Shown in pieces: positions 9,870 through 35,352 of a stretch of 64,000 nucleotides of DNA (position 1 is the stretch's first letter; each line of letters begins with the position of its first letter). The stretch lies in contig CBEVQY010000006.1 of NCBI GenBank assembly GCA_965552135.1, positions 8,713 to 72,712 of the forward strand, written 5' to 3'. The DNA comes from an uncultured bacterium (GTDB lineage: Bacteria > UBP14 > UBA6098 > B30-G16). Both the position numbers and the translations under genes were made by a program. Below the pieces are notes generated by a model, which ran no database searches, was not told the origin of the DNA, and was given only the letters and a program-made list of their open reading frames with translations.

Positions 9870-9975
9870 TGCCAAAAGCTCCGCGAACTATGTGCCTGTG
9901 GAATGGCAAAATGTTTTGCCCAAAGCTTTGGGTGAGCGTAATTTTGTCTCGAAAGCGCGAAGAAGGGGGTGAGGC

Positions 9976-11364: not shown

Positions 11365-14300
11365 GGGGAAGGGCGATAAAAAGCGTTTTTGTGCTTGCGG
11401 CTTTTGTGTACGCAGCGCCTTACAACACGCCCAGTGTGGACGGCACGATCAATATAGCGCCCGACGACTGGGATGCCGATGAGCTCCTCGTCGACGATCC
11501 TCTCGGCGATTCGTACTGGGGTTCGAACAACGACATCGACGATGTGTTCCTGACTTGGGATGCCCAATACCTTTACCTTGGCATCAGGTTCACCGTCTCC
11601 GACAACGGGATGGTGCTTTATGTTGAGTCGGGTCTTCCGGGGGGCGTCACCGACTTTAGCAGCGCGAGGGGCTACCGCGGCGCCTTCCCGCGGAACATAA
11701 GATTCCCGAGCGACTGCGGCATCGACCTTATGATCGGCAGCTGGAACGGCGAGGGACCTTACGTGTATCTTCTCGCCGACAGCTCGAGCACCGACGTGAC
11801 CTCGTCGTGCATCGTCGCAACGGGGGGAGGTTTTGAGCAGGAGGTAGCCGTTCCGTGGGAGCTTATTTATTCTTCGGCTTCGGGCGTTGTTCAGGCGGGG
11901 GCTGAGCTTAGGGTTGTGTGCGTTATAGTTGGCGGGGACGACTACGGCGGCTGCGACGCCGCCCCCGACAACAGCTCCATCGACGGCGGCGCAGGACCAC
12001 ACGATATAAACCAACTCGCCTCCGTTCTGGTCGATGCCGATGGCGACGGCATACCCGACTACGAAGGAGAGGCGCTTTCGGGGTACATCACCTTTGACGA
12101 TACGCTCTTTGCGGAGCCGCCCTACCCGCAGGCGCTCGTCGAGGTCTTCTCGGAGGCAAGCGGCGAGCTTGTGGCAAGCGCAAGGTCATCAAGCGAGGAC
12201 GGCTCATATTTTCTGGCCGGGCTTGTTGCGGGGCAGATCTACGACGTTGTCGCGAGCGCCAACGGCTTTGCACCCGACACGGCGGCGGGCTTCGTCGCCT
12301 CGGAGGGTGTAAACGAGCTTGACTTCGTTTTGGAGCCCTACGGCGGCTCGATCTACGGGGTCGTAAGCCCGTCCGATTTCCCCACGGTGGTTTACGCCCG
12401 CCAGGGGACGACTGTCGTCGGCTTCGGAGATACGACGGAGGCGGGCAGCGGGGAGTACGAAATCACACACCTTCCTCCGGGCTTCTTCGAGGTTGTTGCG
12501 CAGCCGCAATCGAGCGACTACCTGCCGCAGGTCGTGGAGAGCGTTTGGGTCGGTTTGGACTCTGCGACGCGAGTCGATATAGCGCTCGAGCGCGCCGGCG
12601 TTGTGCGCGAGGTCACCGACGCCACAGGCGACGACTACGGACCGGGATGGTACCAATACCCCACCGACAGGGTCTTCGTCGACGGTGCGTTCGACATAGA
12701 GTTCGTCAAGATCAGGGACCTTGGCGAAAGCTATCAGTTCGAAATCGGTGTGGGCGATATACCTGGTCCCTCCGTCGTCGACTGGAACCCCTACTACCCG
12801 CCGCTCAACCTGCAGAAGATCGATATATATATCGACTGTCACAGGGGCGGTTCACGCGTTGGGCTGCCAAACCGAAACGTCACCTTCGCCGCAACCGACG
12901 CATGGGATTTCGCAATATCCGCCGACGGCTGGTGGGTGGGCTTGCTCGCCTCGAACGGACAAGATATATTCTCCAACTACACCCAAAACACGTCGGACGT
13001 AACGGTCGACGCCGATACTGCGACGGACAGGATGTGGATAACCGTCTCCAAGGATGCGCTCGTCGACCATATGGGGCTTGCCGATACAAGCAAGTTCGAT
13101 CAGTGGGACTTTATCGTTCTTATGCTTGGGCACGATTTTTCGGGTGTTGAGGGCGTCAGGTGGGTGAATTCGGGCACGTCGAATCAGTGGGAGTTCAACA
13201 ACGGCGCCGACGGCGACGTCGACCCCAACGTGATCGACCTGGTCGTCATGCCCGGCCTGGACGCCAGCGGTCAACCCAAAGAGCCCGGTCGAAGCCAGGA
13301 GGAGATGCTCGACTACACGATACAAAGCCCCGTCGTGCTCGAAGCTGCAAGAAGCTACGACATCACTCCGCCCACGATTGAGTATGAGCCGCCCTCCGAG
13401 CTTTTATATCTTTCGGGAAGCGGGGGGGTATATATCGAGGTCTCCGTCGACGACGACGTGGCTGTTGCGGATGTGCGCCTTTATTGGCGAAATATTGGGG
13501 ACGCCGAATGGCATGCTGTCGATATGGGATACCGGGAAAGGGTCGATCGCTTTGTCGGCGATATACCCTTCGAGCAGCTTAAGCCCGATTCTTTCGAGAT
13601 GTTCTTCGAGGCGTTCGATTCGGCGGGCAACGTGGCGTATTTTCCGCAGGATTATCCCGACACCGCGACGCCCTGCGAGCCAACATATCCTCTTTCGACG
13701 TGTTCCCCTGATCCCACGCGTGTGCTGCCCGCAGTCGAGGAGATCGACTCCTTCGCCGAGCGTATCGCAATCAACACGTTCGTGGGCGAAAAGGATATAA
13801 AGTTCCCCGACGGAACGATCCTTGTGTTTGACCGAAGCGCGGTCTTTCCGGATGTCGATACTATTATAATAAGCTTTGCCGCCGGCGATGCTCCCGATGA
13901 GCTTGGCGCGCCTCAAGCCTTTCTGCCCGAGCTGACGCCGCTTGGGATATATCGCCGGCTTCGGGTCTCATCCGAAAAAGGGGACCAGGTTTTCGAGCAG
14001 AGGGCGACGATCTCCCTTCACTACTGCGATTGGAGCACCTCTTTGGGTGATGGCGAGCCTGTTCTTTGTGTTTGGCGGGCGGGTGTGCCGCGGTGGATAT
14101 CCCTTGGGGGCAGCAACGACGCACAATCTAACTCGATGGAAGCCATGTACGACGCAAACGGAACGGTTTTCCTCGGCGTTTTCTACGACTCAACCCTGAA
14201 GCCGCTTGATGAACCTATATCTAACATAATAATAACTCCTAACCCGTTCTCGCCCAACGGCGACGGTTTATACGATGAGACGAATATCACCTTTGACTTA

Positions 14301-14540
14301 GCCTACGACGGTCGTCTCGATGCCGATATATTCGATATGCACGGGCGCTTAATCAAAGTACTTGCGAGGAATCTGCAGGTTTCGGAGGGGAGAAATATCA
14401 ATTTAGTTTGGGATGGTCGCGGCGCTGACGGCAGGACTCAGCCGATGGGTATATATATGCTTTCGGTTCGTTTTACTTATATTTTCGAGGGAAATGAACG
14501 GATTGATAGGCGGAACGAAGCCATCGTGGTGGTGAGATGA
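11361..14540 (+). CDS. Large secreted protein with a glucodextranase-like domain and a T9SS type B C-terminal domain
   Basis: Signal peptide. DDYGPGWYQYPTDRVFVDGAFD resembles the start of a glucodextranase C-terminal-like domain. The extreme C-terminus PNPFSPNGDGLYDE...FDMHGRLIK is the type B (gliding-motility-type) CTD hallmark. The 3' approximately 350 bp are AT-richer. Confidence 0.65.
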   Translation: MRGRAIKSVFVLAAFVYAAPYNTPSVDGTINIAPDDWDADELLVDDPLGDSYWGSNNDIDDVFLTWDAQYLYLGIRFTVSDNGMVLYVESGLPGGVTDFSSARGYRGAFPRNIRFPSDCGIDLMIGSWNGEGPYVYLLADSSSTDVTSSCIVATGGGFEQEVAVPWELIYSSASGVVQAGAELRVVCVIVGGDDYGGCDAAPDNSSIDGGAGPHDINQLASVLVDADGDGIPDYEGEALSGYITFDDTLFAEPPYPQALVEVFSEASGELVASARSSSEDGSYFLAGLVAGQIYDVVASANGFAPDTAAGFVASEGVNELDFVLEPYGGSIYGVVSPSDFPTVVYARQGTTVVGFGDTTEAGSGEYEITHLPPGFFEVVAQPQSSDYLPQVVESVWVGLDSATRVDIALERAGVVREVTDATGDDYGPGWYQYPTDRVFVDGAFDIEFVKIRDLGESYQFEIGVGDIPGPSVVDWNPYYPPLNLQKIDIYIDCHRGGSRVGLPNRNVTFAATDAWDFAISADGWWVGLLASNGQDIFSNYTQNTSDVTVDADTATDRMWITVSKDALVDHMGLADTSKFDQWDFIVLMLGHDFSGVEGVRWVNSGTSNQWEFNNGADGDVDPNVIDLVVMPGLDASGQPKEPGRSQEEMLDYTIQSPVVLEAARSYDITPPTIEYEPPSELLYLSGSGGVYIEVSVDDDVAVADVRLYWRNIGDAEWHAVDMGYRERVDRFVGDIPFEQLKPDSFEMFFEAFDSAGNVAYFPQDYPDTATPCEPTYPLSTCSPDPTRVLPAVEEIDSFAERIAINTFVGEKDIKFPDGTILVFDRSAVFPDVDTIIISFAAGDAPDELGAPQAFLPELTPLGIYRRLRVSSEKGDQVFEQRATISLHYCDWSTSLGDGEPVLCVWRAGVPRWISLGGSNDAQSNSMEAMYDANGTVFLGVFYDSTLKPLDEPISNIIITPNPFSPNGDGLYDETNITFDLAYDGRLDADIFDMHGRLIKVLARNLQVSEGRNINLVWDGRGADGRTQPMGIYMLSVRFTYIFEGNERIDRRNEAIVVVR

Positions 14541-15400
14541 AGGGGCAGATATCGTTCAAATTGCTTTGCGTTCTGTTGTTTGTTGGCTCCGCTTTTGGCT
14601 CGGATCTGGATATTTACGTCAACGGTGGCACCCGCGCTGTGTCGGTGGGCAATGCGTATACGGCTTTGTGTGACGCCGCCGACGCAGTTTTCTGGAACCC
14701 GGCGCGCATGCACTCGGACAAACGGGTAAACTTTGCCGCAAACTACGCGAGGATGTACGGGGTAGGTGGATTATATAACTTTTCCTCTGCTTTTACGCTC
14801 AGTTTCTCGAAGTGGGCGTTGGGGGTAGGTTGGAACGGGAATATATTGAGCGATGTTTACGGTGAAAACGTTGTGCTTCTTGGAGTGTCGCGGTCGGTTT
14901 CGCGCTCCATTTCGCTTGGAGGAGCTGCTAAAGGCATATATATATCTGCCCCGGGTTATCTTAAATATTCTGACCCCAGCTTCAGACGCCGCTGCGTTGC
15001 GCTCACGCTAAGTCTGGCTTTGGATTGTAAGCCTCTGTATAATCTCGACTGCGCGCTTGTCCTCGATGACCTTCTGGAGCCCGAAGTCTCTCTGCTAACA
15101 TCGACTGCAGAAAAAGATAGACTCAGGCGCGAAATTAGATTGGGACTTGCGTATCACTTACAGCAATATTTAGTTCTCAGCGCCGACCTTGCCGGTGGAT
15201 TCGACATGGACGATTGGAGATTTAATATAGGTACGGAAGTCAGGTTTTTCGGGGCGCTGGCGCTCCGCAGCGGTTTTTCCAACGGTAGGTTAGGACTGGG
15301 AGTTGGACTTTTCGCGAAGAACTGGAAAGCCGACTTCGGCGTGTATTCACACCGAGTCCTTGGAAACAGATATCAGTTTTCAATAAAATTAAGACGTTGA
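14537..15400 (+). CDS. PorP/SprF-family T9SS outer-membrane protein (putative cognate partner of the type B cargo)
   Basis: Signal peptide, N-terminal ...AYTALCDAADAVFWNPA motif, 287 aa. 4-bp overlap with the upstream type B CTD gene, the arrangement seen for sprB/sprF-like pairs. Confidence 0.5.
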   Translation: MKGQISFKLLCVLLFVGSAFGSDLDIYVNGGTRAVSVGNAYTALCDAADAVFWNPARMHSDKRVNFAANYARMYGVGGLYNFSSAFTLSFSKWALGVGWNGNILSDVYGENVVLLGVSRSVSRSISLGGAAKGIYISAPGYLKYSDPSFRRRCVALTLSLALDCKPLYNLDCALVLDDLLEPEVSLLTSTAEKDRLRREIRLGLAYHLQQYLVLSADLAGGFDMDDWRFNIGTEVRFFGALALRSGFSNGRLGLGVGLFAKNWKADFGVYSHRVLGNRYQFSIKLRR

Positions 15401-15403
15401 GCT

Positions 15404-16849
15404 ATGACGCAGTTTTATAAATTAGTGGTGCTTCTGCTGCCTTTGATTTGCTACGGCGCTGTTCGGTTGGACGGTTATTTCGAGAACGTCAACCACTGCG
15501 ACTGGAATCTCCGCTGGTATATGAGTGAACCACATAACAACCTTGAGCTCCGTTTCACAGGGACGCCGGCTAAAAATATAGAGGCTTTTATTAAATTTCA
15601 CGCTGAATCCGACAAGTTTTTGAACAATAACCGCGCTTGTCGCTATACGATCTACGATATGCTTGAGATGCACGGTAAGTTTCGCTGGGACAGGGGGTTG
15701 GAGGTGGTTGTGTTCTCCCGCGAAAATCGCTTTTGGTTTCCGCAGGGGCTTATGGAGCTGGTTTCACAATGGGTGGTCAACGACGGCGGCAACGCGCAGG
15801 GCGTTCGGATAGACTTCTGGAACCTGTGGAAATTTTACGGGGTTATCATCCATAGCGATTATTCCCAGTCCTCTGGGGAGGACGCAAACATATTGCGCTG
15901 GAACCTGCCACTTTTTGATAATAAAGTGCGAATATCGTCAACGCTGGCGCGCAAGGATTGGGGAACCGAGAGCGGCAACTATAACGCCATTTACTCACTT
16001 GACGCGCACCTCTCCGTAGGCAGACTCTTGCCGTTCCTGCATCGCTTCGGGAACATAGCGCTGTGGACGGAGGTTGCAAGAAGTCACATTCCGGAGAATC
16101 CCCAGAGGAACCTGGCTTTTGCGGCGGAGGTAAGGAATATTCGCTGGGGTGGACTGGACGCGCAGTTCTCCTATCATAAGGTTCAGGAGAATTTTCGTTC
16201 ATATTTGTCGAGCGACTACGATTGGGGGCAGAAATATAATGAAGAAGGTTTTTCCGTCCAGGGAACCTATTTCTTTCCCATGAAGGCAGTGAACTTTACG
16301 TCGAAATATTCTTACTATGTATCCCCGGTCAATCGGGCATTCCCGGTATGTTCGACTAACCCAAAACGGCGTTATCAGGAGTGGTATAATGAGTTATATA
16401 TCGAGTTTATATACGATGTTAAATGTAAGATTTGGTATCGGTATTACCGTGGCTGGGACATGAATTATGACGCCTATAAAACCTACCCCTCTCTTTTTGG
16501 AGAGATATCCTTCGAGAACTATTTTGCAAAAGTTCGTTTGCAGGCAAAGTGGAAAGACATTGGCACTCCGTATGATTTGCAAGCTTTCGGCATTGAAATA
16601 AACGCTAATATCTCACGCAACTGGAAACTCTATATACGTTCGATGAATGTAAATGAAATTGCGGAGTCGAGACAAACTGTTTTCGCTCAGCTTCAATATC
16701 ACGGCTGGTCTAATACCGATTTCTTTATTGAGTTCGGTAATCCATATGATTCAGACAACGACTTAACTAACGATGACGATTTTGTCGATGTTTCTGCCAA
16801 TCACGGTATAAGCAAGCAACTGAAGACATATATTCGATTTTACTTCTAA
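15404..16849 (+). CDS. Putative outer-membrane beta-barrel protein (hypothetical)
   Basis: Signal peptide, abundant alternating aromatic residues, C-terminal ...YIRFYF (terminal Phe typical of outer-membrane beta-barrels). AT-rich codon usage, within the island. Confidence 0.45.
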   Translation: MTQFYKLVVLLLPLICYGAVRLDGYFENVNHCDWNLRWYMSEPHNNLELRFTGTPAKNIEAFIKFHAESDKFLNNNRACRYTIYDMLEMHGKFRWDRGLEVVVFSRENRFWFPQGLMELVSQWVVNDGGNAQGVRIDFWNLWKFYGVIIHSDYSQSSGEDANILRWNLPLFDNKVRISSTLARKDWGTESGNYNAIYSLDAHLSVGRLLPFLHRFGNIALWTEVARSHIPENPQRNLAFAAEVRNIRWGGLDAQFSYHKVQENFRSYLSSDYDWGQKYNEEGFSVQGTYFFPMKAVNFTSKYSYYVSPVNRAFPVCSTNPKRRYQEWYNELYIEFIYDVKCKIWYRYYRGWDMNYDAYKTYPSLFGEISFENYFAKVRLQAKWKDIGTPYDLQAFGIEINANISRNWKLYIRSMNVNEIAESRQTVFAQLQYHGWSNTDFFIEFGNPYDSDNDLTNDDDFVDVSANHGISKQLKTYIRFYF

Positions 16850-16856
16850 GGAGGCT

Positions 16857-19169
16857 TTGATGAGGCAAGATTTATATATCATATTAGTGTTCTTCATCTT
16901 CTTTTCAGCAAGCCATGCGAAATACATTGTCAAAGGCGACAGCGTTACCTTCGTTTATGCTGACTCCAGCGCGCGCGAGGTTTACGTAGCCGGAGATTTC
17001 AATAACTGGGATCCTCGCGACATTAGGCTGGAGCGTAGCGATGGCATCTTTACTATTACGATCTTCGTTTCCCCGGGGCGTCATGAGTATAAATTTATAG
17101 TCGATGGTATTTGGAAGGAGGATCCAGATAATCCCGAAACTGTTCCCGACCCGTATGGAGGCAAAAATTCCGTCTTGTGGGTCGGGCGTAGATCAAAGGA
17201 TATTGAACTGCAGTCCGTAAAGATTGGTGGTAAAGCTTTATTTACGTATTATAATCCAAGTGCACGGGAAGTATACCTTGCGGGCGAGTTCAATAATTGG
17301 AATCCCCGTCAGCTATTAATGGAGAATCACGACGGCACTTGGGAAATTAGGCTTGACTTGCCCCCGGGTGAATATGAATATAAATTTGTGGTTGACGGTG
17401 TTTGGACTGCTGATCCATTGAATCCGGTTACACGCGGTCCAATGGGAAATTCTGTCATAAAAATAAACCCCGACGGCACGGCGACATATCCTCGAGGTGC
17501 GCGCCTTTTGGCTAATTCCATTGCGTCGTCGCGGATTTTGTTCGGTGGTTTGTTTACGTCGCATCTTGTTACCTATCACGATCGTGATCTGCCGGGCGAT
17601 TATAACGGCGACGGGCGCCTAAAGCTGTATAAACCAGCGATCTTGGCGGCTGTAGATTTGAGGGTTCATATAAGTGAAGGAGTCTCTTTGACGACATCGT
17701 TTGATGTCAACGCTTTTGATGCCGAGAAGATTTACGAAGCGCACTTTCGGATCGACTCAATTGGCGCTTCATTTGAGTCGGATAATTTTAATTTACGACT
17801 TTTTTATAACATGGACGTGTTTTCCACCGACGATCCTTTGAGGGCTGTGGGTGGCATGAAGTATCCCGAACCGACTTTCGAGCCTTGCAGGTCGCTGGGG
17901 TTGGGATATGCAGGGCTTTATTTGCGGAAGCAGTGGGCTGAGGGTATCTTGCGAGGAACAGCTTTTGATATATTGTTCGCAAATCTATTCAAGGATTGGA
18001 GCTTCAGTCCGGACTCTTTTGATTTCATAAACATGCTTCGAAGACGTGCGGTGGGTTTTTGGCGCTCGGATATAATTAGCACCAGTGAACCTCGCGATTT
18101 TTCCGATTACGGCACCGATATGTTGATCGCGCGCATAACGCGCTCGTTGCAGTTTGGTAAGCTTGGTCTTACCGTGCGATTTGACAAGAATGGATGGTGG
18201 CTGCCTTTGTCAGAAATTACCTATGAAAACATTGATTCAATTTATGAAGCCTATGAGCTCCATTCCGATTGGCTGGAGCTTGGCTCGTATGAGTTAGGAA
18301 CGGGGGTTGATTTGTTAATCTCACCATTGAAAGGCTGGGATTTTTCGGGTGAGTATATGTTGTGGAGCTATCGTTCTTCTATCGATGCAGGCAATCGCGA
18401 GAACAGTGATCATACAGGGGATTCAACAATCAACATCACACTTGGCGCACAAACTGGTTATTTAGCGTCGGGGTGTGTGAATGTGAACATATATGAGCCA
18501 ATTACTATCGGTCTTACTTATTTGCTTGAACGCTATGATAGTATGGCGCGAGAAGATGTTTATATATATCCTATGTCTAACGATGGTTCTACTGGAAGGC
18601 CTACATTGGCGTACTTGCATATGCCCAACTATAATCGTTCGCGTATAGAAGGATCGCTGCGGGTGACCACAGCTGCTTTTAGCTCTGCCGTGCACATCGG
18701 TTGGGATAAGTCGACCGAATGGAATACGTTTTTTGCTGATTTGAATGGAAATTGCTCGCCTTTTCGAAGGATAAGAATTAAGAGCAAGGGTTTCTATGCC
18801 AGGGGTAATGCCAATGCGTACGATTTCTGTGACGCAGGCGGTGTTGTGAATGTACAATTTGAGATACTGCGTGATTGGGGATTGGAGTTTGATCTATTTG
18901 GTCGGTGGCTCAGAGTTCGGAGCGACACCAGCGAAAGCGTAACTGGTCTTGTTTTGGCGCCTTATTGCGCATTTTTATATGAGCCAGTTCCTCATACACG
19001 GCTTGAGATTTCATATGGGGTAAGACCCTATAATGTGATAGGTCAATATGTCGGCAGAACGGAATGGGTATACAACACAATGCGGCAGAATTCGCTGAGT
19101 TTTATTACTGCACTGCAACGTCTCGAGGCTTATCGATGTGTTAACTTGTACGCAAGCGTGAGGTTTTGA
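16857..19169 (+). CDS. Secreted protein with tandem CBM48 / AMPK-beta-type glycogen-binding domains fused to a putative outer-membrane beta-barrel
   Basis: Signal peptide. Two repeats of (F/Y)..AREVY(V/L)AG(D/E)FNNW(D/N)PR...(E/H)Y(K/E)YKF(I/V)VDG(I/V)W..DP.NP match the AMPK-beta glycogen-binding domain. The C-terminal approximately 550 aa are beta-rich and end in ...LYASVRF. Confidence 0.6.
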   Translation: MMRQDLYIILVFFIFFSASHAKYIVKGDSVTFVYADSSAREVYVAGDFNNWDPRDIRLERSDGIFTITIFVSPGRHEYKFIVDGIWKEDPDNPETVPDPYGGKNSVLWVGRRSKDIELQSVKIGGKALFTYYNPSAREVYLAGEFNNWNPRQLLMENHDGTWEIRLDLPPGEYEYKFVVDGVWTADPLNPVTRGPMGNSVIKINPDGTATYPRGARLLANSIASSRILFGGLFTSHLVTYHDRDLPGDYNGDGRLKLYKPAILAAVDLRVHISEGVSLTTSFDVNAFDAEKIYEAHFRIDSIGASFESDNFNLRLFYNMDVFSTDDPLRAVGGMKYPEPTFEPCRSLGLGYAGLYLRKQWAEGILRGTAFDILFANLFKDWSFSPDSFDFINMLRRRAVGFWRSDIISTSEPRDFSDYGTDMLIARITRSLQFGKLGLTVRFDKNGWWLPLSEITYENIDSIYEAYELHSDWLELGSYELGTGVDLLISPLKGWDFSGEYMLWSYRSSIDAGNRENSDHTGDSTINITLGAQTGYLASGCVNVNIYEPITIGLTYLLERYDSMAREDVYIYPMSNDGSTGRPTLAYLHMPNYNRSRIEGSLRVTTAAFSSAVHIGWDKSTEWNTFFADLNGNCSPFRRIRIKSKGFYARGNANAYDFCDAGGVVNVQFEILRDWGLEFDLFGRWLRVRSDTSESVTGLVLAPYCAFLYEPVPHTRLEISYGVRPYNVIGQYVGRTEWVYNTMRQNSLSFITALQRLEAYRCVNLYASVRF

Positions 19170-19171
19170 AA

Positions 19172-19573
19172 ATGGCGGAAAGAACTATGCAACTTATGGT
19201 TTGCATTTGGATTTTGTTTGTCATTTCATGTATCGGTTGTGCACATCTTATAAAAAATAGATTACCCCCACCGCATAAGGTTGATGGCGGGATACTTTTT
19301 CAATATGAAAACAAAGCCGCCCATTCCGTCAACCTTGCGGGAAACTTCAACGGCTGGTGCGGCACAAAGGAGTACGGTAGATTTGATCCGTCGATAGGTG
19401 TAATGCACGATGATGATGGGGATGGAATATGGGAAATTATTGTTCCATTGCCGCCCGGACGGTATCAATATAAATTCGTCATCGATAACGGAGCTAGTTG
19501 GGTCCTTGATCCCAATAATCCATTGACTGACTATGAAGATGGTATTGAAAACTCTCTCTTAATTGTGGAATAA
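19172..19573 (+). CDS. Small CBM48 (glycogen-binding domain) lipoprotein
   Basis: Lipobox (FVISC), then a single domain: VNLAGNFNGW...GIWEIIVPLPPGRYQYKFVIDNG.WVLDPNNP. About 134 aa. Confidence 0.6.
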   Translation: MAERTMQLMVCIWILFVISCIGCAHLIKNRLPPPHKVDGGILFQYENKAAHSVNLAGNFNGWCGTKEYGRFDPSIGVMHDDDGDGIWEIIVPLPPGRYQYKFVIDNGASWVLDPNNPLTDYEDGIENSLLIVE

Positions 19574-19590
19574 TAACATGAGGAGTCATT

Positions 19591-22167
19591 ATGATGGTAT
19601 GGAGGGATGCAAGGATGTTGTTTTGGGCGTCGTTATTGTACGTGTCTCTTCTCGTTGCGCAGCCTGTGAAACATGGTGATAATGTTCTATTTCGCTTTTG
19701 GGCTCCACAGGCTAGGATTGTTTACCTTGCTGGCGAGTTCAACAGCTGGAACCCTCGCGCGCTGCCAATGCAGAGAGACTCATCAGGTATGTGGATAGTT
19801 GAGTTGCAGCTTGAGCCCGGCGTTTATCAATATAAGTTTGTAATAGATGGAATCGATTGGCGCGAGGATCCAAATAATCCCTATAAAGTCGATGACAACT
19901 TCGGAGGTTACAATTCCGTTTTGACGATAACTGCTGATGGTGATGTTGTACTGGGAGAACTTCCATATACGGGTCCTTTGTCCGACGAATATGTGGTTAA
20001 TGGGAAGTTGTATTTAAATATAATTTGGCACCAGCATCAGCCGTTGTATCTCGATCCAGAAGATGATAAATTAATAGGTCCTTGGGTTCGTGCACACGCT
20101 ACAAAGGATTATTACGATATGGCGGCAATGCTCGAGAAATTTCCCAACGTTCACTGTACGATCAATTTAACTTCAGTTCTGTTATTCCAATTGCAGGAAT
20201 ATTATGTAAAGCGCCTAGGAGAGTGCGTTGACTTAAGTGCGAATAGAGTTGATACTGCAAAATACTGGGCGAAATGGGGTGGGCGCGTAGATCCCTGGAT
20301 CGACCTTGCGTTGAAACCTACCGAGCTTTTTACTGCGGAGGACGATGCGTACCTTTATAAAAATGCGTGGAATGCTTTTGGAATTTCGGATGTTATGATT
20401 GAACGATTTCCTGAATATAAAGCGCTGAAAGAGAAGGGCGGGAATTATAGTATTGACGAAAAGCGTCAGATCAAGTTCTGGCACTATCTTGCTTGGTTCG
20501 ATCCCGATTTTCTGCGAGGACCCGTGAAGCTCGCCACCGGTTATGTTTGCGATCTATCGGACTTAGTCGAAGAGCGAGACGGCAAATTTTATCTCCGCCA
20601 TCCGGTAACTGAAGATGATTGTAATAGAATCATTGCCGAAGTTTATAAAGTATGTGCCGCGATTATCCCGATTCATAAGAAACTAATGTACGATCCAGAC
20701 ACACATCAGGGTCAGATCGAAATTATAACAACACCGTATTATCACCCTATTCTTCCTTTAATATGTTCAACGGATATAGCTCGCGTTTGTCAACCTGGCG
20801 CGCCGCTGCCCAAGCTTTTCTCATACCCTGAAGATGCGCAAGCGCAGGTCGCTAAAGCTGTTGCATATTATAAGTCTATTTTCGGAAAGGCACCGTATGG
20901 AATGTGGCCGGCTGAAGGAGCTGTTGCAGAAAACATTTTGTCCGTGTTGGCTTTGAATAATATATTATGGATGGCAACTGGCGACGGCGTTCTTTACCGT
21001 TCTCTTCCTGGAGCTCCTTTCTACTTTCCCTATCGGGTTGACACCGACACTATCCCAGGCTTTTCGGAAAATGCCCTTGCCATTGTTTTTAGGAATACTG
21101 AGCTGTCAGACAAAATAGGGTTTAGGTATCAGCGAAAAACGGGTGAGCAAGCTGCGGATGACTTTATTCGTTCTATTATAAAATACGCTTCCCCGGACGA
21201 GGACAGGTTGCTGACGGTGATTCTCGACGGCGAGAACGCATGGGAGTGGTATCGACTTGACAATGATGGTAAACAGTTTCTTCACGCGTTATATCGTAAA
21301 TTGTCGAAGCTGACTGAGGAAGGGAAGGTTATAACGGTGACACCTATCGAGTATATAATGGGTAATCCAGCCCGAGGCGTTCCCCCTCATCCCGTAACTG
21401 CGATGCCAGAGATAGAGCCTCTTTGGCCTGGTTCGTGGATCAACGCCAACTTCGATACTTGGATCGGTGAAGACGAAGAGAATCGCGCCTGGGAGTACTT
21501 GCTTCAAACTCGGCAGGACTTGGGCACGTCTGGGATTGCGCCACCGGATCCCGCTGAAAGTTGTCCAGATGCTGGTTCGCCGGCCTACTGCAGATATATG
21601 GCGTGGGAGGAAATGTATGCGGCCGAGGGAAGCGACTGGTTCTGGTGGTATGGGCAGGACCAAGGAGCCCCCGGCGGGGACAAGCCGTTTGAACGTATAT
21701 TCTTGACTCATCTTAAAAGCGTGTATAGTTTTATGAAGGAGTGCGGTTGGAAAGGGGAGATGCCGCAGTTTGAGCCGATCCTTACCGGCCTCGCCGGTGG
21801 AGGCGGTGTTATGGCAGAGTCCAGCAAAATGGTAAAAGTTATATTTACCTGTGATGCGCGTGCGATAAATGTACCCGATGCTATATATATAGCGGGTGAA
21901 TATCCCGAGCTTGGTTCTTGGGTACCTAATAAAGTACGCATGTATGACGACGGCACTCACGGTGACGAAGTTGCAGGCGATGGGATATGGACCATAACCT
22001 TCGAGTTCCCTGTTGGCACATCCGTTCAGTATAAATATACTAACTCCGGCAAAATCGGTGTTTGGAGCCCGAGCGAGGAGTTTCCGGCGATAAATCGGAA
22101 AATATATGTTCGTGACGAAGGAAATGGCACGATGATCGTTCGAGATATTTTTGGGAAAATGGACTAA
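19591..22167 (+). CDS. Glycoside hydrolase family 57 alpha-glucan-active enzyme with N-terminal CBM48 and C-terminal CBM-like module, secreted
   Basis: Signal peptide. N-terminal CBM48 (YLAGEFNSWNP...GVYQYKFVIDGIDWREDPNNP). GH57 conserved regions IIWHQHQPLY, GQIEIITTPYYHPILPL, WPAEGAV, VILDGENAWEW, AEGSDWFWWYG. C-terminal module DDGTHGDEVAGDGIWT...YKY. Confidence 0.75.
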   Translation: MMVWRDARMLFWASLLYVSLLVAQPVKHGDNVLFRFWAPQARIVYLAGEFNSWNPRALPMQRDSSGMWIVELQLEPGVYQYKFVIDGIDWREDPNNPYKVDDNFGGYNSVLTITADGDVVLGELPYTGPLSDEYVVNGKLYLNIIWHQHQPLYLDPEDDKLIGPWVRAHATKDYYDMAAMLEKFPNVHCTINLTSVLLFQLQEYYVKRLGECVDLSANRVDTAKYWAKWGGRVDPWIDLALKPTELFTAEDDAYLYKNAWNAFGISDVMIERFPEYKALKEKGGNYSIDEKRQIKFWHYLAWFDPDFLRGPVKLATGYVCDLSDLVEERDGKFYLRHPVTEDDCNRIIAEVYKVCAAIIPIHKKLMYDPDTHQGQIEIITTPYYHPILPLICSTDIARVCQPGAPLPKLFSYPEDAQAQVAKAVAYYKSIFGKAPYGMWPAEGAVAENILSVLALNNILWMATGDGVLYRSLPGAPFYFPYRVDTDTIPGFSENALAIVFRNTELSDKIGFRYQRKTGEQAADDFIRSIIKYASPDEDRLLTVILDGENAWEWYRLDNDGKQFLHALYRKLSKLTEEGKVITVTPIEYIMGNPARGVPPHPVTAMPEIEPLWPGSWINANFDTWIGEDEENRAWEYLLQTRQDLGTSGIAPPDPAESCPDAGSPAYCRYMAWEEMYAAEGSDWFWWYGQDQGAPGGDKPFERIFLTHLKSVYSFMKECGWKGEMPQFEPILTGLAGGGGVMAESSKMVKVIFTCDARAINVPDAIYIAGEYPELGSWVPNKVRMYDDGTHGDEVAGDGIWTITFEFPVGTSVQYKYTNSGKIGVWSPSEEFPAINRKIYVRDEGNGTMIVRDIFGKMD

Positions 22168-22186
22168 CTAACCTAAGGAGGTAACA

Positions 22187-23422
22187 ATGCGTATTATAAG
22201 AATACTCCTACTTCTGACGGCAGCTTTGGCGATTTTGACGTCCTGCGGCAGGAAACAGAATAGGGTCACGACCATAACGATTTGGCACCAGATGCAAGTC
22301 GAAGGGCGCAGTGTACTTAGGAAATTATGCGATGAGTATCAAAAACTACATCCAAATGTTAAAATTGAACTTTTGTATAAAGAAACGGAGGAGCTGCGTT
22401 CAGCGTTCCAAACTGCTGCTCTGGCTGGCTCGGGACCTGAACTTGTGTATGGTCCTGCTGATCAAATTGGACCTTTTGCTAAAATGAAGATTATATTGCC
22501 TCTTGACACACTGTTCTCATCGGATACATTAAAGCATTTTGATCCTAAGTCATTAACCTACTTTGAGGGTCATCTGTATCAAATAGGTGATAGAGTCGGC
22601 AACCATTTAGCGCTAGTTTACAATAAAGGGCTTGTTTCTACCCCTCCTCAAACATCGGAAGAGCTTATTAAAATAGGTGGGCAATTAACCAAAGACATCG
22701 ACGGCGATGGACGGATAGACCAATATGCTCTTGTCTGGAATTACACTGAACCTTATTTCTTTGTTCCGTTCATAGGGGGTTTTGGAGGCTGGATTATGGA
22801 CGAAAATGCCCGTCCAACTCTGAATACACCAGCTGTCGTAAACGCATTTAAGTTTATCGTGGCGCTTCGCGACAGCTACAAGATTATTCCGAAGGAATGT
22901 GATTATGATATGGCTGATGCTCTTTTCAAGGAAGGGCGAGCTGCCATGATTATAAACGGTCCTTGGTCGTGGGGTGGATATATTAAAGCGGGGATCGATA
23001 TTGGTATTGCTCGCATTCCTAAAATGTCTGAGACTGGACTATGGCCAACACCTATGTTCTCGCCTAAAGGGTATTCAATAAACGAAAATATTTCTGCGAG
23101 CAAACTGAAGCAAGTCGTTGAGTTACTGTATTATCTCACCTCACCGCGTTCTGAGCTTGAGTTTACTAAGGTGCTCGGGACGATACCATCGAGGCTGGAG
23201 GCACAAAAGGATACGGTTGTTGTGAATAATCCGATTATAAAAGCCTCCAAGGAGCAGCTTGAGGTTTGTAAGCCTATGCCTGTTGTGCCGGAGCTGCGCG
23301 CGATCTGGGACGCGATGAGACCGGCTTATCAAGCGGTCTTAGCGGGTACGATGACCCCTGAGGATGCAGCCAAAGCTATGCAAAAAGAAGCCATTAAAAA
23401 AATAAAGGAGATGTATGAATAA
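22187..23422 (+). CDS. ABC transporter substrate-binding lipoprotein, maltose/maltodextrin-type (MalE-like)
   Basis: Lipobox LTSC and family 1 solute-binding-protein features (ITIWHQMQ..., GPWSWGGY). 411 aa. Confidence 0.8.
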   Translation: MRIIRILLLLTAALAILTSCGRKQNRVTTITIWHQMQVEGRSVLRKLCDEYQKLHPNVKIELLYKETEELRSAFQTAALAGSGPELVYGPADQIGPFAKMKIILPLDTLFSSDTLKHFDPKSLTYFEGHLYQIGDRVGNHLALVYNKGLVSTPPQTSEELIKIGGQLTKDIDGDGRIDQYALVWNYTEPYFFVPFIGGFGGWIMDENARPTLNTPAVVNAFKFIVALRDSYKIIPKECDYDMADALFKEGRAAMIINGPWSWGGYIKAGIDIGIARIPKMSETGLWPTPMFSPKGYSINENISASKLKQVVELLYYLTSPRSELEFTKVLGTIPSRLEAQKDTVVVNNPIIKASKEQLEVCKPMPVVPELRAIWDAMRPAYQAVLAGTMTPEDAAKAMQKEAIKKIKEMYE

Positions 23423-24317
23423 AATGAAGGGAAGTTTACACAAGAGCGAAGCATTTTTTAAGTATATATTCCTCACTCCAGCGCTTTTGGTTATTTTTGC
23501 CGTAGTCGTTTATCCGTTCGTATATAATATCGTGTTATCACTATCTAACATGAGCATGACCCACTTCCGCGACTGGAGGCTCGTCGGTTTTGCTCAATAT
23601 AAAAAGGTTTTTACGGAACCAATATTTTACTCTGTCTTCCTGAAAACGGTGATTTGGACGGTTGTCAACGTATTTTTCCATGTCGTCATAGGCGTTTTTT
23701 TGGCTGTTTTGCTCAACCGCAATCTTCCTGGGAAAAGCGTGTACAGAACGTTGCTTATCATTCCCTGGGCTGTTCCGCAGTATATTACTGCTCTGACCTG
23801 GCGCGGAATGTTTAACTATGAGTACGGCGCTGTCAACCTCTTCCTGTCCAAATTCCTGCATCTACCTATGATCCAATGGCTCAAACATCCGTTTTATGCT
23901 TTTGTCGCATGTATAATAACGAACGTTTGGCTTGGTTTTCCGTTTATGATGGTTATCGCCTACGGTGGGCTTCAAGCAATACCGCGCGAGCTCTACGACG
24001 CCGCTGAGGTCGATGGCGCAACTGCTTGGCAGAAGTTCTGGAAAATAACTGTGCCTTACCTTAAACCTGTTATGACGCCTGCCATTATCTTGGGCATCAT
24101 ATGGACGTTCAACAACCTGAACGTGGTCTGGCTTGTGTCGAACGGCGGAGAACCTTCAGATAAAACGCATATTCTCGTCTCATATGTATATAAAGCGGCT
24201 TTTAACCTGTATCGTTACGGCTACGCTGCGGCGTTGTCGATGGTTATATTCCTAATTCTGCTTATATTCGCTGTGCTTTTCATAAAGCAGACTAAGGCGA
24301 CGGAAAGCATATATTGA
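23415..24317 (+). CDS. Carbohydrate ABC transporter permease (MalF-like)
   Basis: Six-TM permease with EAA-type loop (GATAWQKFWKITVPYLKP). 8-bp overlap with the upstream binding-protein gene. Confidence 0.8.
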   Translation: MNKMKGSLHKSEAFFKYIFLTPALLVIFAVVVYPFVYNIVLSLSNMSMTHFRDWRLVGFAQYKKVFTEPIFYSVFLKTVIWTVVNVFFHVVIGVFLAVLLNRNLPGKSVYRTLLIIPWAVPQYITALTWRGMFNYEYGAVNLFLSKFLHLPMIQWLKHPFYAFVACIITNVWLGFPFMMVIAYGGLQAIPRELYDAAEVDGATAWQKFWKITVPYLKPVMTPAIILGIIWTFNNLNVVWLVSNGGEPSDKTHILVSYVYKAAFNLYRYGYAAALSMVIFLILLIFAVLFIKQTKATESIY

Positions 24318-25162
24318 GAGGTTCGGCCATGAAGAGGCGACGACGAATAGTAGATGCCCTTATTTATGTATTTCTAACCTGCTTTACGGCTGCAACCCTT
24401 TATCCCGTTGTGCGGGTTGTGTCGATATCGCTTCGACCTGGCGACAGACTTCTGTCCACATCGCTGCGGATAATACCCAAGGACGCGACCTTAGAGGCAT
24501 ATAGACGCCTTTTCACCGAAACACCCTTCTTGCGCTGGATGTTAAACTCCCTCATCGTCTCAGCTGCCGTAACTTTAACCGGTGTTGTGCTTGCTGCGAC
24601 CGCTGGTTATATTTTCTCTAAGCACGATTTTATTGGAAAAAAACTCAGCCTAACGGCAATTCTGACGACGCAGATGTTCCCCGCTACTATGTTGCTTCTG
24701 CCCATGTATATTATGTTGTCTAAGCTTGGGCTGATCAACAGTTACTTAGGATTGATTATAGTTTACACTGCCACAGCTCTGCCGTTTTGCATATGGCAGA
24801 TGAAGGGTTATTACGATACCATCCCAAACTCGCTCTACGAGGCTGCCATAATCGATGGGTGTTCCCACTTCCAGGCGTTTTATAAGGTTATTCTGCCCCT
24901 TGCTGCTCCAGCGCTCGTTATAACGGCTTTGTTCTCGTTTATGTCTGCGTGGTCGGAATATATTGTTGCTGCGCAGATACTACAGCAGCCCGATATGTTT
25001 ACTCTCCCCCTCGGGTTGAAGCAGTTTCAGTCCAACATGACGACGCAGTGGGGGCTTTATGCCGCTGGCGCCGTCGTTGTGTCGATTCCCGTCGTCGTGC
25101 TTTTTATAATCTTGAGCCGATGGCTCATAAGCGGCTTGACGCTTGGCAGCGTTAAGGAATAA
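24314..25162 (+). CDS. Carbohydrate ABC transporter permease (MalG-like)
   Basis: Permease with EAA motif ([25 protein letters not shown]). 4-bp overlap with the upstream permease. Confidence 0.8.
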
Positions 25163-25182
25163 AAAGCACAGCGAGGTGCAGT

Positions 25183-26238
25183 ATGGCGGAGGTCGTTCTG
25201 AAAAAGGTAAATAAAATATATCCCGGCGGCGTGCATGCCATAAAGGACGTTTCGCTCGAGGTAGAGGACGGTGAGTTTCTCGTTCTCGTCGGTCCTTCCG
25301 GGTGTGGAAAGTCGACGCTTCTTAGGCTCATCGCCGGTCTTGAGGAGGCTACGTCGGGCGAGATCATAATAGGCGGCAGGGTTGTAAACGACGTTGCGCC
25401 GAAGGACAGGGATATATCGATGGTCTTTCAGAACTACGCCCTCTACCCGCACATGACGGTCTACGAGAACATGGCGTTCGGACTTAAGATACGCAAGTTC
25501 CCGAAGGATGAGATCGACAGGCGTGTGAGGGAGGCGGCGGAGATGCTGGGTCTGACGGACCTTCTGGATCGCAAGCCCAAGGCTCTCTCCGGCGGGCAGA
25601 GGCAGCGTGTTGCGCTCGGCAGAGCCATCGTGCGAAAGCCCAAGGTGTTCTTGTTCGACGAGCCTTTGTCAAATCTCGACGCAAAGCTTAGGGTGCACAT
25701 GAGGACCGAGATAAGCAAGCTCCACCAGAGGCTTGGGACCACGATGATATACGTAACCCACGACCAGGTCGAGGCGATGACGATGGGCGACAGGATCGCC
25801 GTCCTCAAGGATGGCGTCATCCAGCAGCACGACACGCCGATGAAGCTTTACAACGATCCCGTGAACATGTTCGTTGCGGGTTTCATAGGCTCCCCCGCAA
25901 TGAACTTCATCGATGGGTCGGTTTCGGGCGAGGTCATAACGCTTGGTGAGGTCTTATTGCCGAAGCCCAGGCAGGTTGAGCCGCCCGGTGGGGAGCTTGT
26001 GGTCGGGATAAGACCGGAGCACTTCGTCGTCGATCCGGAGGCTCCGCATCTTTCCGCCGTCGTCGAGGTTGTGGAGCCTATGGGGAACGAGACCTTCATC
26101 TACTTCCAGCTCGGCGGGAGGCAGGTTGTGGCTCGCATACCCGCAAGCTACGCCGTCCGCGTGGGCGATAAAGTCCCCATCCGCATCGACACAGAGAGGA
26201 TAAAGTTCTTCGACCCCAAAACGGGTCTTAGGCTTTAG
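25183..26238 (+). CDS. Sugar ABC transporter ATP-binding protein (MalK/UgpC-like)
   Basis: Walker [11 protein letters not shown]-loop, [14 protein letters not shown] signature, Walker [11 protein letters not shown], and a C-terminal TOBE-like regulatory domain. GC-rich codon usage again. Confidence 0.9.
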
Positions 26239-27107: not shown

Positions 27108-27156
27108 CTTTGTATAAAGATGTCGCGTGTTGTTGCGCTGTTCAAGGCTTTTTTGT

Positions 27157-32436: not shown

Positions 32437-32562
32437 AACGAAGTCAAGTTAAGCACGATCCCGTTGTGGCGCAACCGATAAGGGGCTCGGGCGCCCCAAA
32501 AAGGACTTGATTAGTTCCGAGGGCGGCGGTTATTTTTGTGGAAAGGCAAGGAGGTGCCGGGT

Positions 32563-35265: not shown

Positions 35266-35288
35266 GGTCAGTTTGTATCTTAGCGAAA

Positions 35289-35352
35289 TTTGTCTTTGTG
35301 AAAATCGACTAAAGACAAAATTTTTCTTGACAATATCGACTGTAGACAAAAT
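35289..35352. promoter_or_regulatory. Putative operator: inverted repeat TTTGTCTTT-N13-AAAGACAAA plus two direct repeats ATCGACTnnAGACAAAAT spaced 31 bp apart
   Basis: Read directly from the sequence: inverted repeat at 35289-35319; direct repeats at 35304-35321 and 35335-35352. They overlap the -35/spacer of the predicted promoter for the 35396 gene, in the divergent region beside the XRE gene. Confidence 0.45.

Follow-up and report, generated by a model that had tools for sequence, protein, structure and literature searches.

The starch-utilisation system (Sus) of Bacteroides thetaiotaomicron, formed by SusCDEFG together with SusAB, is the model for polysaccharide-utilisation loci. The maltose/maltodextrin system of Escherichia coli (LamB, MalS, MalE and MalFGK2) combines an outer-membrane channel with an amylase in the periplasm, a binding protein and an importer of the ABC type. 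In the SprB-SprF and PG1035-PorP pairs, a type B cargo is bound to an adjacent PorP-like barrel (PMC9143113), and the conserved regions of GH57 enzymes have been described together with their Glu256/Asp352 dyad (PMC12106739). We compared these systems with an operon found in a stretch of 64,000 nucleotides from an uncultured bacterium (hereafter, the window).

The operon consists of eleven genes on one strand (9976–26238), which overlap by 4 to 8 nt or are separated by at most 20 nt, and terminator-like hairpins are found on either side (9915–9936 and 26297–26317). These genes form a single operon, of which the AT-rich stretch is only the centre (Table 1). A462 and B1059 upstream and the MalK-type gene downstream have the GC content of the host, and all three are syntenic in the relative L002. 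The preliminary description of this DNA had omitted the two upstream, glucan-related genes (9976–14540) from its gene list. Our reading, to which we give a probability of about 0.6, is that the operon serves alpha-glucan use and that its centre was replaced in place by the allele of a lower-GC relative.

Table 1. Features of the operon and of the AT-rich segment (window coordinates)
Feature	Coordinates	Strand	Description
A462, secreted starch-binding protein	9976..11364	+	signal peptide, CBM20, X25-like domain, T9SS type A CTD
B1059, large secreted non-catalytic glucan-binding protein	11361..14540	+	CarboxypepD_reg, Glucodextran_C, type-B-like T9SS CTD
C287, outer-membrane barrel	14537..15400	+	PorV/PorQ/PorP (FadL-like) T9SS superfamily, from HMM and orthologues
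D481	15404..16849	+	signal peptide, beta-barrel of ~24 strands in the outer membrane, family undescribed, C-terminus RFYF
E770	16857..19169	+	signal peptide, two CBM48 (~18-108, ~126-202), 22-strand barrel (~225-769), C-terminus VRF
F135, small CBM48 lipoprotein	19166..19573	+	lipobox Cys followed by conserved IKxRLPPPH motif
G858, GH57, amylopullulanase type	19591..22167	+	Sec signal, N-terminal CBM48, C-terminal CBM20
MalE-like solute-binding lipoprotein	22187..23422	+	lipobox LTSC; SBP_bac_8 2.5e-33
MalF-like ABC permease	23415..24317	+	BPD_transp_1 4.7e-20
MalG-like ABC permease	24314..25162	+	BPD_transp_1 6e-22
MalK/UgpC-type ABC ATPase, last operon gene	25183..26238	+	MalK OB and TOBE domains
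AT-rich segment, putative replaced tract	14210..24985	.	begins in the CTD-coding end of B1059, stops close to the malG 3′ end

Like Sus, the operon is a single locus encoding candidate surface glycan-binding proteins with starch-binding CBMs, a barrel of the size of a TonB transporter, a small CBM-bearing lipoprotein and a presumably periplasmic alpha-glucan hydrolase. However, HMM searches gave no match to SusC, SusD or GH13 in the operon, as had been claimed from first inspection, and a plug, a TonB box and a TonB_dep_Rec match are all absent. The predicted surface proteins carry CTDs as cargo of the T9SS and are not lipoproteins, the hydrolase belongs to GH57, and the inner membrane would be crossed via a MalEFGK-type ABC transporter. 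The operon also has counterparts to the channel, amylase, binding protein and importer of E. coli, but its outer-membrane proteins are unrelated to the 18-strand LamB trimer, its MalE is a lipoprotein, its enzyme is a GH57 protein with CBMs instead of GH13_19, and the T9SS-displayed binding proteins are additional. On the whole, it is reasonable to see here, as proposed earlier, a Sus-like function assembled from other components.

A462 matched Pfam CBM_20 (28.2 bits, cut-off 23.3), NCBIfam Por_Secre_tail (TIGR04183; 30.6, cut-off 23) and choice_anch_X (3e-9). Its GC3 of 0.74 is that of the host, and the L002 orthologue, 61% identical, occupies the same position. B1059 carries a Glucodextran_C domain (1.5e-36); in the PDB it is related only to the C-domain of glucodextranase (1ug9, 3.6e-13), and the searches detected no catalytic domain in it. 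Its type-B-like CTD begins with PNPFSPNGDG at about residue 960; the last 130 amino acids score below threshold with both CHU_C (24.2, cut-off 27) and TIGR04131 (20.6, cut-off 35), and the C-termini of all 29 B1059 orthologues analyzed match the two models. These orthologues end at the gene for the C287 orthologue or overlap it, and the start of C287 overlaps the B1059 stop by 4 nt. The pair, which is kept in 39 to 57 loci, resembles SprB-SprF and PG1035-PorP in that the gene of a large cargo with a type-B-like CTD lies directly upstream of, and overlaps, that of a FadL-like barrel. C287 had been described as PorP/SprF-like; the superfamily holds, but PorV/PorQ fits better. C287 matched NCBIfam PorV_fam (4e-8; 33 bits, cut-off 90), its profile matched the PDB structure of PorV (6h3i, 2.6e-6), and among 30 orthologues PorV_fam was matched by all (best 5e-26), PorVQ2 by 27, PorQ by 26, PorV by 24 and PorP/SprF by 20. 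The pair differs from the described ones in further respects: C287 is shorter (~290 aa), it and the B1059 CTD remain below the curated cut-offs, a PorE-like gene is absent, and the hosts belong to phyla outside those in which the T9SS has been studied by experiment. Given the published precedent, C287 is a putative cognate anchor or shuttle for B1059.

AlphaFold2 models both D481 and E770 as beta-barrels (pLDDT 85 and 76), in agreement with what had been proposed. No family match to D481 was found by HMM, and neither its barrel nor that of E770 belongs to any described family. The E770 barrel is TonB-transporter-sized and has no plug domain in the model. Unlike FhuA and other TonB-dependent transporters, E770 lacks a TonB box and has the CBM48 tandem (AMPK1_CBM 8e-35) as its N-terminal region; its identity to these transporters is 6–10%, and the sequence models of the family give no match. 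Weak matches to SusE/SusF domains were obtained with 7 of 12 E770 orthologues. F135 matched AMPK1_CBM (7.6e-10) and CBM_48 (1.2e-6), and its lipobox Cys and RLPPPH motif are kept in orthologues across phyla. HMM searches and the lipobox bear out the two CBM48 domains of E770 and the CBM48 lipoprotein of the preliminary description. C287, D481, E770 and F135 together constitute a nearly invariant, undescribed outer-membrane module, in which a barrel of 22 to 24 strands without plug would need some occluding element. Loop-length parity, in a model whose confidence is moderate, indicates that the CBM48 tandem of E770 probably faces the periplasm. This argues against surface capture by these domains; capture is more plausibly ensured by the T9SS cargo pair A462/B1059.

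G858 matched Glyco_hydro_57 (9e-57), CBM_20 (1e-14) and CBM_48 (2e-12), and its C-terminal CBM-like module, already noticed, is now identified as CBM20. Among solved structures, it is closest to AaApu, the Aquifex aeolicus amylopullulanase (8zyi/9iht, 5e-48). The motifs HQHQP, WPAEGA (Glu nucleophile), DGENAW (Asp acid/base) and AEGSDW are all kept and match the published GH57 regions. G858 has the Glu/Asp dyad in common with AaApu (PDB 8ZYI), as well as all five conserved regions. However, AaApu is a catalytic domain only (477 aa), whereas G858 (858 aa) also includes a signal peptide, CBM48 and CBM20, and its catalytic domain is interrupted by a large insertion. We considered G858 as a surface enzyme like SusG and rejected this assignment: it carries a Sec signal but neither a lipobox nor a T9SS CTD, and would thus be periplasmic by default. 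No surface hydrolase was recognisable in the operon. Among the NCBIfam models, those of the Mal proteins rank first for all transport proteins but one, and each of the four stays below the equivalog cut-off: MalE 4e-42 (144 bits, cut-off 291), MalF 2.4e-57 (195, cut-off 392), MalG 7e-56 (190, cut-off 261) and MalK 431 bits (cut-off 568). The ATPase scored 502 bits with the UgpC-subfamily model (cut-off 432) and matched ABC_tran (3.6e-38), OB_MalK (1.4e-11) and TOBE_2 (4.5e-11). The CBM48, GH57 and MalE/F/G content claimed earlier was confirmed by these searches.

A search for synteny in relatives, which the preliminary description had called for, showed that the cassette is conserved. The core B-C-D-E-F, usually with MalEFG nearby, was found in the genomes of 79 species, all of them metagenome-assembled. 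These species belong to Zixibacteria, Eisenbacteria, Krumholzibacteriota and allied groups and represent at least five lineages of the FCB group. Among the loci in which the neighbours could be assessed, C immediately precedes D in 57 of 62, and F follows E in 43 of 44. D co-occurs with E (60/61), B (39/45) and, in long loci, MalE (27/30) and MalF (26/30). Of the 30 long loci, only 11 have a GH57 gene close to the cassette, which indicates that the enzyme partner is variable. Throughout the relatives, the GC of the cassette is the local host GC (0.41–0.72) and its GC3 (0.37–0.99) tracks the genome. The cassette is ancestral in non-Bacteroidota FCB-group phyla.

We propose that the operon uses extracellular alpha-glucan, namely glycogen, starch or pullulan. 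A462, by its CBM20 and type A CTD, and B1059, by its Glucodextran_C domain and type-B-like CTD, would be exported by the T9SS and displayed on the cell surface, B1059 being held or shuttled by C287 as SprF holds SprB. Glucan chains would traverse the outer membrane via D481, the plug-less E770 and F135; in the periplasm, the Sec-exported GH57 would cleave alpha-1,4 and alpha-1,6 bonds, and the lipoprotein MalE with MalFGK2 would import the maltodextrins. The outer-membrane module would thus most likely take up alpha-glucan for periplasmic GH57 and ABC import. Domain identities, barrel folds, synteny and conservation are results of this analysis, whereas localisation, the direction of transport, the substrate and contacts between the proteins are inferred. 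It is rather unlikely that D481 and/or E770 are instead devices for export or assembly, forming for example a dedicated pore or sheath by which F135, the CBM48 tandem or GH57 would be presented at the cell surface (an LptD-LptE- or MtrB-like plug-and-barrel), or acting as T9SS accessory barrels. They do always travel with the T9SS-type barrel C287 and the small lipoprotein F135, and GH57 has no evident surface route in an operon without another extracellular hydrolase. However, the structural matches are those of generic barrel similarity (4–14% identity), D481 and E770 resemble no known T9SS component, and the tight linkage to MalEFG in the long loci argues that something enters the periplasm.

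The compositional shift noted at ~14.2–25.2 kb is real. The GC background of the window is 0.57–0.64, against 0.44–0.51 for the 1-kb bins at 14–25 kb, and GC3 is 0.40–0.56 in the eight genes within 14537–25162, against 0.69–0.75 in the flanking genes (9976–14540, 25183–26238, 26235–27242 and 27851–29848). The MalK-like gene, with a GC3 of 0.75, is back at the host value as had been stated. A two-change-point likelihood fit on the third codon positions of the operon placed the boundaries at 14,210 (2-logL support 13,790–14,216) and 24,985 (24,967–25,018), with a GC3 of 0.485 within the tract and 0.724 beyond; compared with a model without change points, the log-likelihood ratio is 145. Of the edges given before (14,200 and 25,180), the left one stands; the right one is not at the end of malG but ~180 nt inside it, within its last ~60 codons. 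Both change points fall within intact genes and the change is graded, without a step: GC3 drops in B1059 from ~13.5 kb onward, and its last ~110 codons are below host GC. GC1, GC2 and amino-acid composition are also shifted in the tract. When set against their L002 orthologues, proteins of the flanks show a GARP enrichment of +0.045 to +0.058, which those of the interior lack (−0.009 to −0.066). Further AT-rich stretches of the window likewise code for secreted or envelope proteins.

The tract had been viewed as a foreign island. This does not hold for the whole system, because the cassette is ancient, occurs at local GC in the 79 species genomes, and the operon exceeds the tract on both sides; only the centre of a resident operon looks acquired. 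The junctions within ORFs, and the lack of a tRNA, an integrase, flanking repeats or other mobile-element marks at the tract, point to allelic replacement and not to the gain of a new function. The segment from the B1059 CTD to the end of malG would most likely have been replaced in an event specific to this genome, after the drift of its lineage to 0.60 GC, the source being the orthologous tract of a relative with ~0.43–0.46 GC. The closest relatives have a GC of 0.41–0.49; the best non-self matches are 47% for E770 and 66% for D481, and no donor is sampled.

A rival explanation is chimeric assembly or binning, in which reads of a co-occurring lower-GC Zixibacteria population with the orthologous operon were joined into the contig of the 0.60-GC population. 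We consider this unlikely, even though the sequence is a metagenome contig (80,312 bp), low-GC relatives with the same operon exist, and both junctions fall in coding sequence that is orthologous between the populations, which could share k-mers there. Two in-frame junctions with all ORFs intact would need long exact matches despite a GC3 gap of ~0.25, the left-junction region of B1059 is poorly conserved (orthologues are 56–58% identical overall), and the transition is graded across the edge genes. Furthermore, a second, Logan-derived member of the GH57 cluster is on a contig of 20,863 bp, which exceeds the 10.8-kb tract and, if collinear with the window, should cross at least one junction.

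Still less probable is a native tract, without transfer, whose GC was lowered by a mutational or selective bias acting locally, for example if the envelope proteins have to be expressed weakly or under tight control. The graded composition and the envelope-related content of the other AT-rich stretches would fit this explanation, as would the fact that the genes of the tract and of the flanks are equally distant from L002 and L008. However, the boundaries cut through genes, ignoring gene and operon limits, and the amino-acid composition is off the host trend, which codon-level selection would not cause. Moreover, the dip is absent from all of the ~25 high-GC relatives, where the GC3 of the same cassette (0.7–0.99) equals that of the host, showing that it is not intrinsic to the locus.

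Eleven genes on the + strand, from 9976 to 26238, overlap by 4 to 8 nt or are separated by gaps of at most 20 nt. They join CBM20, CBM48, Glucodextran_C and GH57 domains, all related to alpha-glucans, and thus show the co-localisation of glycan-binding and hydrolase functions by which PULs are recognised. HMM searches confirmed the genes listed in a preliminary description, made from the sequence alone, with three corrections: the C-terminal module of the GH57 enzyme is a CBM20, the first outer-membrane barrel fits PorV/PorQ better than PorP/SprF, and two upstream genes of host GC (A462 and B1059), which had been left out, belong to the same glucan operon. The same searches bore out that the operon proteins contain no SusC, SusD or GH13 domain. 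Two terminator-like hairpins, in themselves weak evidence, bracket the operon; surplus promoter-like sites found by the scan were discounted because they are expected from AT-rich DNA alone.

Genes of the alpha-glucan operon; proteins are named by a letter followed by their length in amino acids, and assignments are from HMM searches
Protein	Coordinates	Strand	Assignment
A462	9976-11364	+	CBM20, X25-like domain, T9SS type A C-terminal sorting domain (CTD) above cut-off
B1059	11361-14540	+	CarboxypepD_reg, Glucodextran_C (1.5e-36), weak type-B-like CTD
C287	14537-15400	+	weak match to PorV/PorQ family
D481	15404-16849	+	no match
E770	16857-19169	+	two CBM48, then ~550 residues without match
F135	19166-19573	+	CBM48
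G858	19591-22167	+	signal peptide, CBM48, GH57 (9e-57), CBM20
MalE	22187-23422	+	MalE-like lipoprotein
MalF, MalG	23415-25162	+	MalF-like and MalG-like permeases
MalK	25183-26238	+	MalK/UgpC-type ATPase, OB and TOBE domains

The outer-membrane core of the operon is made of undescribed protein families. D481 is modeled as a barrel of about 24 strands and E770 as two CBM48 modules followed by a 22-strand barrel without a plug; both folds are predictions only. Searches with the D and E orthologues gave no Pfam family link for either barrel at E≤1, and homology between the two barrels was rejected (hhalign probability 10%). Domains TonB_dep_Rec, Plug, CarbopepD_reg-Plug and SusD were detected neither in 10 operon proteins (E≤0.01) nor in 12 E and 33 D orthologues (E≤1), and E770 falls outside the definition of a TonB-dependent transporter, namely a 22-strand barrel with an N-terminal plug and a TonB box. 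The E orthologues all end in an aromatic residue, a trait of outer-membrane beta-signals. Because the long loops come after the odd-numbered strands in the D and E models, the usual rule would place the barrel N-terminus, and hence the CBM48 tandem of E770, on the periplasmic side.

Three proteins of the operon scored above the Pfam gathering thresholds of CBM_48 and AMPK1_CBM (26.8 and 22.4 bits): E770, which has two copies, with 119 and 67.5 bits, F135 with 39.3 and 29.1, and G858 with 51.6 and 47.9. A 34-nt DNA repeat family in four copies (17072-17105, 17363-17396, 19453-19486 and 19815-19848) matches the 'PGxYEYKF(I/V)VD' core shared by the CBM48 modules: two in E770 and one each in F135 and the GH57 enzyme. 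F135 is a lipoprotein, and in its orthologues from several phyla the lipobox Cys is followed by a near-invariant 'xxIKxRLPPPH' stretch, which may serve in sorting or docking. C287 reached 33.2 bits on PorV_fam for a cut-off of 90. Its orthologues match this model in 30/30 cases (best E 5e-26), most of them also match PorQ, PorV and PorP/SprF, and a profile of the C family matches the solved PorV structure 6h3i at 2.6e-6. By these profile matches C287 likely belongs to the PorV/PorQ/PorP superfamily.

Both proteins encoded upstream of C287 resemble T9SS cargo. The type A CTD of A462 occupies residues 382-453 of 462, the extreme C-terminus (TIGR04183, 30.6 bits against a cut-off of 23). The C-terminus of B1059 stays below the cut-offs of the type B models (TIGR04131, 20.6 versus 35; CHU_C, 24.2 versus 27), as do the C-termini of its orthologues, 29 of 29 of which match both models with best E values of 4e-6 and 1.3e-8. 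The proteins whose genes directly precede C have strongly conserved C-termini, and these genes end a few bases from the C gene or overlap it. The B-C gene pair mirrors the published arrangement in which a type B cargo is anchored by an adjacent PorP-like barrel, as for SprB-SprF and PG1035-PorP (PMC9143113). Surface capture is probably the role of A462 and B1059, which the preliminary description had left out. T9SS substrates are unusually dense in the window: two further cargo proteins of host GC are encoded at 27851-29848 on the - strand (665 aa, type A CTD only) and at 32536-34836 on the + strand (766 aa, InhA-like MAM domain and CTD).

G858 was assigned to GH57 on the Pfam gathering score (Glyco_hydro_57, 193 bits versus 21.2), the five conserved sequence regions (CSRs) and the catalytic dyad formed by Glu in CSR-3 and Asp in CSR-4. 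Its motifs HQHQP, GQIEI, WPAEGA, DGENAW and AEGSDW align with 11-HMHQP, 187-GKGSV, 253-WPPEAS, 352-DGENCW and 442-LVAEGSDW of the Aquifex aeolicus amylopullulanase. As this enzyme is the nearest solved relative, and for that reason only, G858 may be regarded as a putative amylopullulanase. Glucan export or capsule synthesis was rejected as the function of the operon, since it has no glycosyltransferase, its ABC system is of the importer type and the GH57 protein keeps the hydrolase-type dyad. G858 carries a Sec signal peptide only; with its C-terminus taken up by CBM20, there is no space for a T9SS CTD. A conserved 'A|QP' closes the GH57 signal peptides (window 19591-19680; relatives L002, L004 and L038), so the mature enzyme would begin with Gln, in a manner reminiscent of the 'Q-rule' that applies to signal peptidase I substrates in Bacteroidota. 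In the ENA assembly of another relative (L003, 12657-15228) a stretch of unknown bases divides the orthologue into two ORFs; the gene is whole in L002, and the break is due to a gap in the assembly and does not mark a pseudogene.

The ABC system is read as an importer because it includes a solute-binding protein. Its four components score below the NCBIfam equivalog cut-offs (MalE 144 versus 291, MalF 195 versus 392, MalG 190 versus 261, MalK 431 versus 568). They fall within the wider CUT1 family of sugar ABC transporters, where MalEFGK is their best or near-best model, and are not equivalogs.

Full-length homologues of E770 are rare, with only about a dozen in 5.8 billion clustered proteins, and the contigs encoding them show the same gene order. 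In the relative L002 (GC 0.49) the whole set of eleven genes is present and in the window's order, with 44-88% identity and a uniform composition. A scan with the D481 alignment of one genome per GTDB species yielded 79 loci labelled as Zixibacteria, Eisenbacteria, Krumholzibacteriota, Latescibacterota, 'Fibrobacteraceae' and Gemmatimonadota. The neighbours of D were then counted by tblastn mapping of the eleven window proteins, using only testable loci as denominators. C lies upstream of D in 57 of 62 loci and B in 39 of 45; E follows immediately downstream in 60 of 61, and F comes after E in 43 of 44. Within 10 kb of D, MalE was present in 27/30 loci and MalF in 26/30, and GH57 in 11/30. The counts show that C-D-E-F and a sugar ABC importer occur together almost invariably; the domain identities and the operon structure are likewise shown. 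Variants exist at L004/L005 (5331-18763), with unrelated genes interleaved in L004 (PNP_UDP_1, a 4Fe-4S protein and Na_Ca_ex). In Eisenbacteria (L021, L023 and others) the order is F-MalF-MalG-MalE-GH57 and the protein upstream of C reaches 1800-2500 aa. In Krumholzibacteria (L048-L067) malEFG are divergent and upstream, and GH57 is usually absent within 10 kb. No account of this cassette turned up in literature searches.

To our knowledge, only the SusCD systems of Bacteroidota and the porin-based systems of Proteobacteria have been worked out in detail as routes of glycan capture and import across the outer membrane. The cassette occurs in candidate phyla that abound in sediments, soils and anoxic waters, and whose role in polymer turnover has been inferred mostly from counts of carbohydrate-active enzymes. 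We propose tentatively, with a probability of about 0.3, that C287, D481, E770 and F135 form an unrecognised glycan-uptake machine of the outer membrane that replaces SusC/SusD in MAGs labelled Zixibacteria, Eisenbacteria, Krumholzibacteriota, Latescibacterota and Gemmatimonadota. It would be TonB-independent, built on plug-less barrels of 22 and 24 strands and coupled to capture proteins displayed by the T9SS, and a periplasmic CBM48 ratchet (E, F and GH57) would haul in whole alpha-glucan chains for 'selfish' degradation. The mechanism proposed for the operon is more general and more probable than this reading. A and B would be displayed on the surface by the T9SS and bind alpha-glucan, with C holding B in place. 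Large maltodextrins or glucan chains would pass the outer membrane through D and/or E, while F, and possibly the CBM48 tandem or loop helices of E, may gate or occlude these wide barrels. The CBM48 modules of E, F and GH57 would hold the chain in the periplasm, GH57 would cut alpha-1,4 and alpha-1,6 bonds, and MalE-MalFGK2 would import the products.

Uptake by this route has weak points: the operon is without a surface hydrolase, a plug-less barrel needs closing, and the enzyme partner varies among relatives. The main rival gives D and E an export or sheath role, in the manner of LptD-LptE or MtrAB, by which F, the CBM48 tandem or GH57 would be exposed at the surface; we consider it the less likely of the two. 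Read as an uptake system, the operon resembles in function a hybrid of the Sus and E. coli maltodextrin logics and is a member of neither. With the Bacteroides Sus system it shares CBM-bearing surface proteins, a large barrel, a small lipoprotein with a CBM and a hydrolase in the periplasm, but the SusC/SusD pair was tested for and is absent from the operon. It shares with the E. coli system the sequence of channel, periplasmic amylase and MalEFGK2, whereas its ABC parts lie below the MalEFGK equivalog cut-offs and its outer-membrane proteins are unrelated to LamB. The Sus-like function initially suggested was about right, unlike the reading of the locus as an island. A conserved SusCD-free alpha-glucan locus would yield a concrete, testable feeding model for these lineages. 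It comprises two unannotated families of large barrels, a CBM48 lipoprotein and a PorV/PorP-like barrel specific to the locus. Structural work would gain two new families of outer-membrane proteins, and T9SS cargo/anchor pairs would be exemplified beyond Bacteroidota. The C-D-E-F module, conserved in several little-known phyla, is a lead that is both testable and worth following.

The preliminary description had also proposed that the AT-rich DNA at 14200-25180 was acquired horizontally as an island. The compositional anomaly is real. In 1-kb bins the GC content is 0.57-0.64 across most of the window versus 0.44-0.51 at 14-25 kb, and the GC3 of the eight genes at 14537-25162 is 0.40-0.56 versus 0.69-0.75 in the flanking genes; GC1 and GC2 are also reduced in these eight genes. 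A likelihood fit of two change points, restricted to the third codon positions of the operon, placed the edges at 14,210 (support 13,790-14,216) and 24,985 (24,967-25,018), so that the proposed coordinates were essentially correct. GC3 is 0.485 within the tract versus 0.724 outside, with a log-likelihood ratio of 145 over no change. Both edges lie inside intact ORFs, in the last ~110 codons of the B1059 gene and the last ~60 codons of malG, and the overlapping start and stop codons of the operon are intact across the left junction. The left support interval corresponds to residues 810-952 of B and stops just short of PNPFSPNGDG, an invariant motif of the CTD; the putatively replaced tract therefore takes in both the CTD of B and C, its putative partner.

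The foreign-island reading did not hold as stated: L002 keeps the full gene order and the core cassette recurs in the 79 species-level loci, which makes the locus ancient and resident. In every relative the GC3 of the cassette equals that of the host, over a range of 0.37 to 0.99, and the AT-richness thus belongs to this genome's copy and not to the locus. Marks of a mobile island were lacking, as both edges are within ORFs, no flanking repeats were found at the tract, HMM searches detected no integrase among the operon proteins, and no tRNA is near, the sole tRNA of the window being at 61287. The best reading is that a lower-GC relative supplied the orthologous tract, which replaced the centre of the operon in place. 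All of the nearest relatives lie at 0.41-0.49 GC, so that the host is a GC outlier and the tract looks to have missed its GC rise. Compared with the L002 orthologues, the flank proteins A, B and MalK show a GARP-over-FYMINK enrichment of +0.045 to +0.058, as would follow from drift of the lineage to high GC; the interior proteins from D to MalF lack this enrichment (-0.009 to -0.066), and the edge proteins C and MalG show an intermediate bias toward the host.

Taken alone, the compositional anomaly is a modest one and may reflect an artefact of assembly. A chimeric metagenome contig is an alternative to be reckoned with, though of low probability. A search of JGI metagenome contigs with a 30-mer taken immediately inside the left junction gave no exact match. 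A chimera does not predict the host-leaning bias of C and MalG or the graded GC3, which passes without a step from 0.53-0.56 in the four edge genes to 0.40-0.46 in the four central ones. A single clean replacement does not predict these features either. No donor emerged from the search, in which the best non-self matches were 47% (E) and 66% (D). Percent identities for the pairs window-L002, window-L008 and L002-L008 were 58, 56 and 58 for flank gene B, and 63/65/66 (D), 48/46/50 (E) and 40/40/44 (C) for island genes. Island and flank genes do not conflict in these matrices, and because the window is equidistant from both relatives in both gene sets, phylogeny is uninformative on transfer. If the anomaly is real, the middle of an operon was swapped in place between relatives of very different GC, an event easily misread as the gain of a foreign island.

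Two other stretches of lower GC were seen in the window. One, at 35000-37100 (GC 0.45-0.49), contains an ORF on the + strand (35396-37027) whose 543-aa product has no Pfam or NCBIfam match, and may be another import or replacement. The other, at 47261-51600 on the - strand (GC 0.47-0.53), encodes two adjacent beta-helix/PMP-repeat proteins of 846 and 672 aa, both with a T9SS Por_Secre_tail. The annotatable products of the AT-rich patches of the window are all secreted or envelope proteins.
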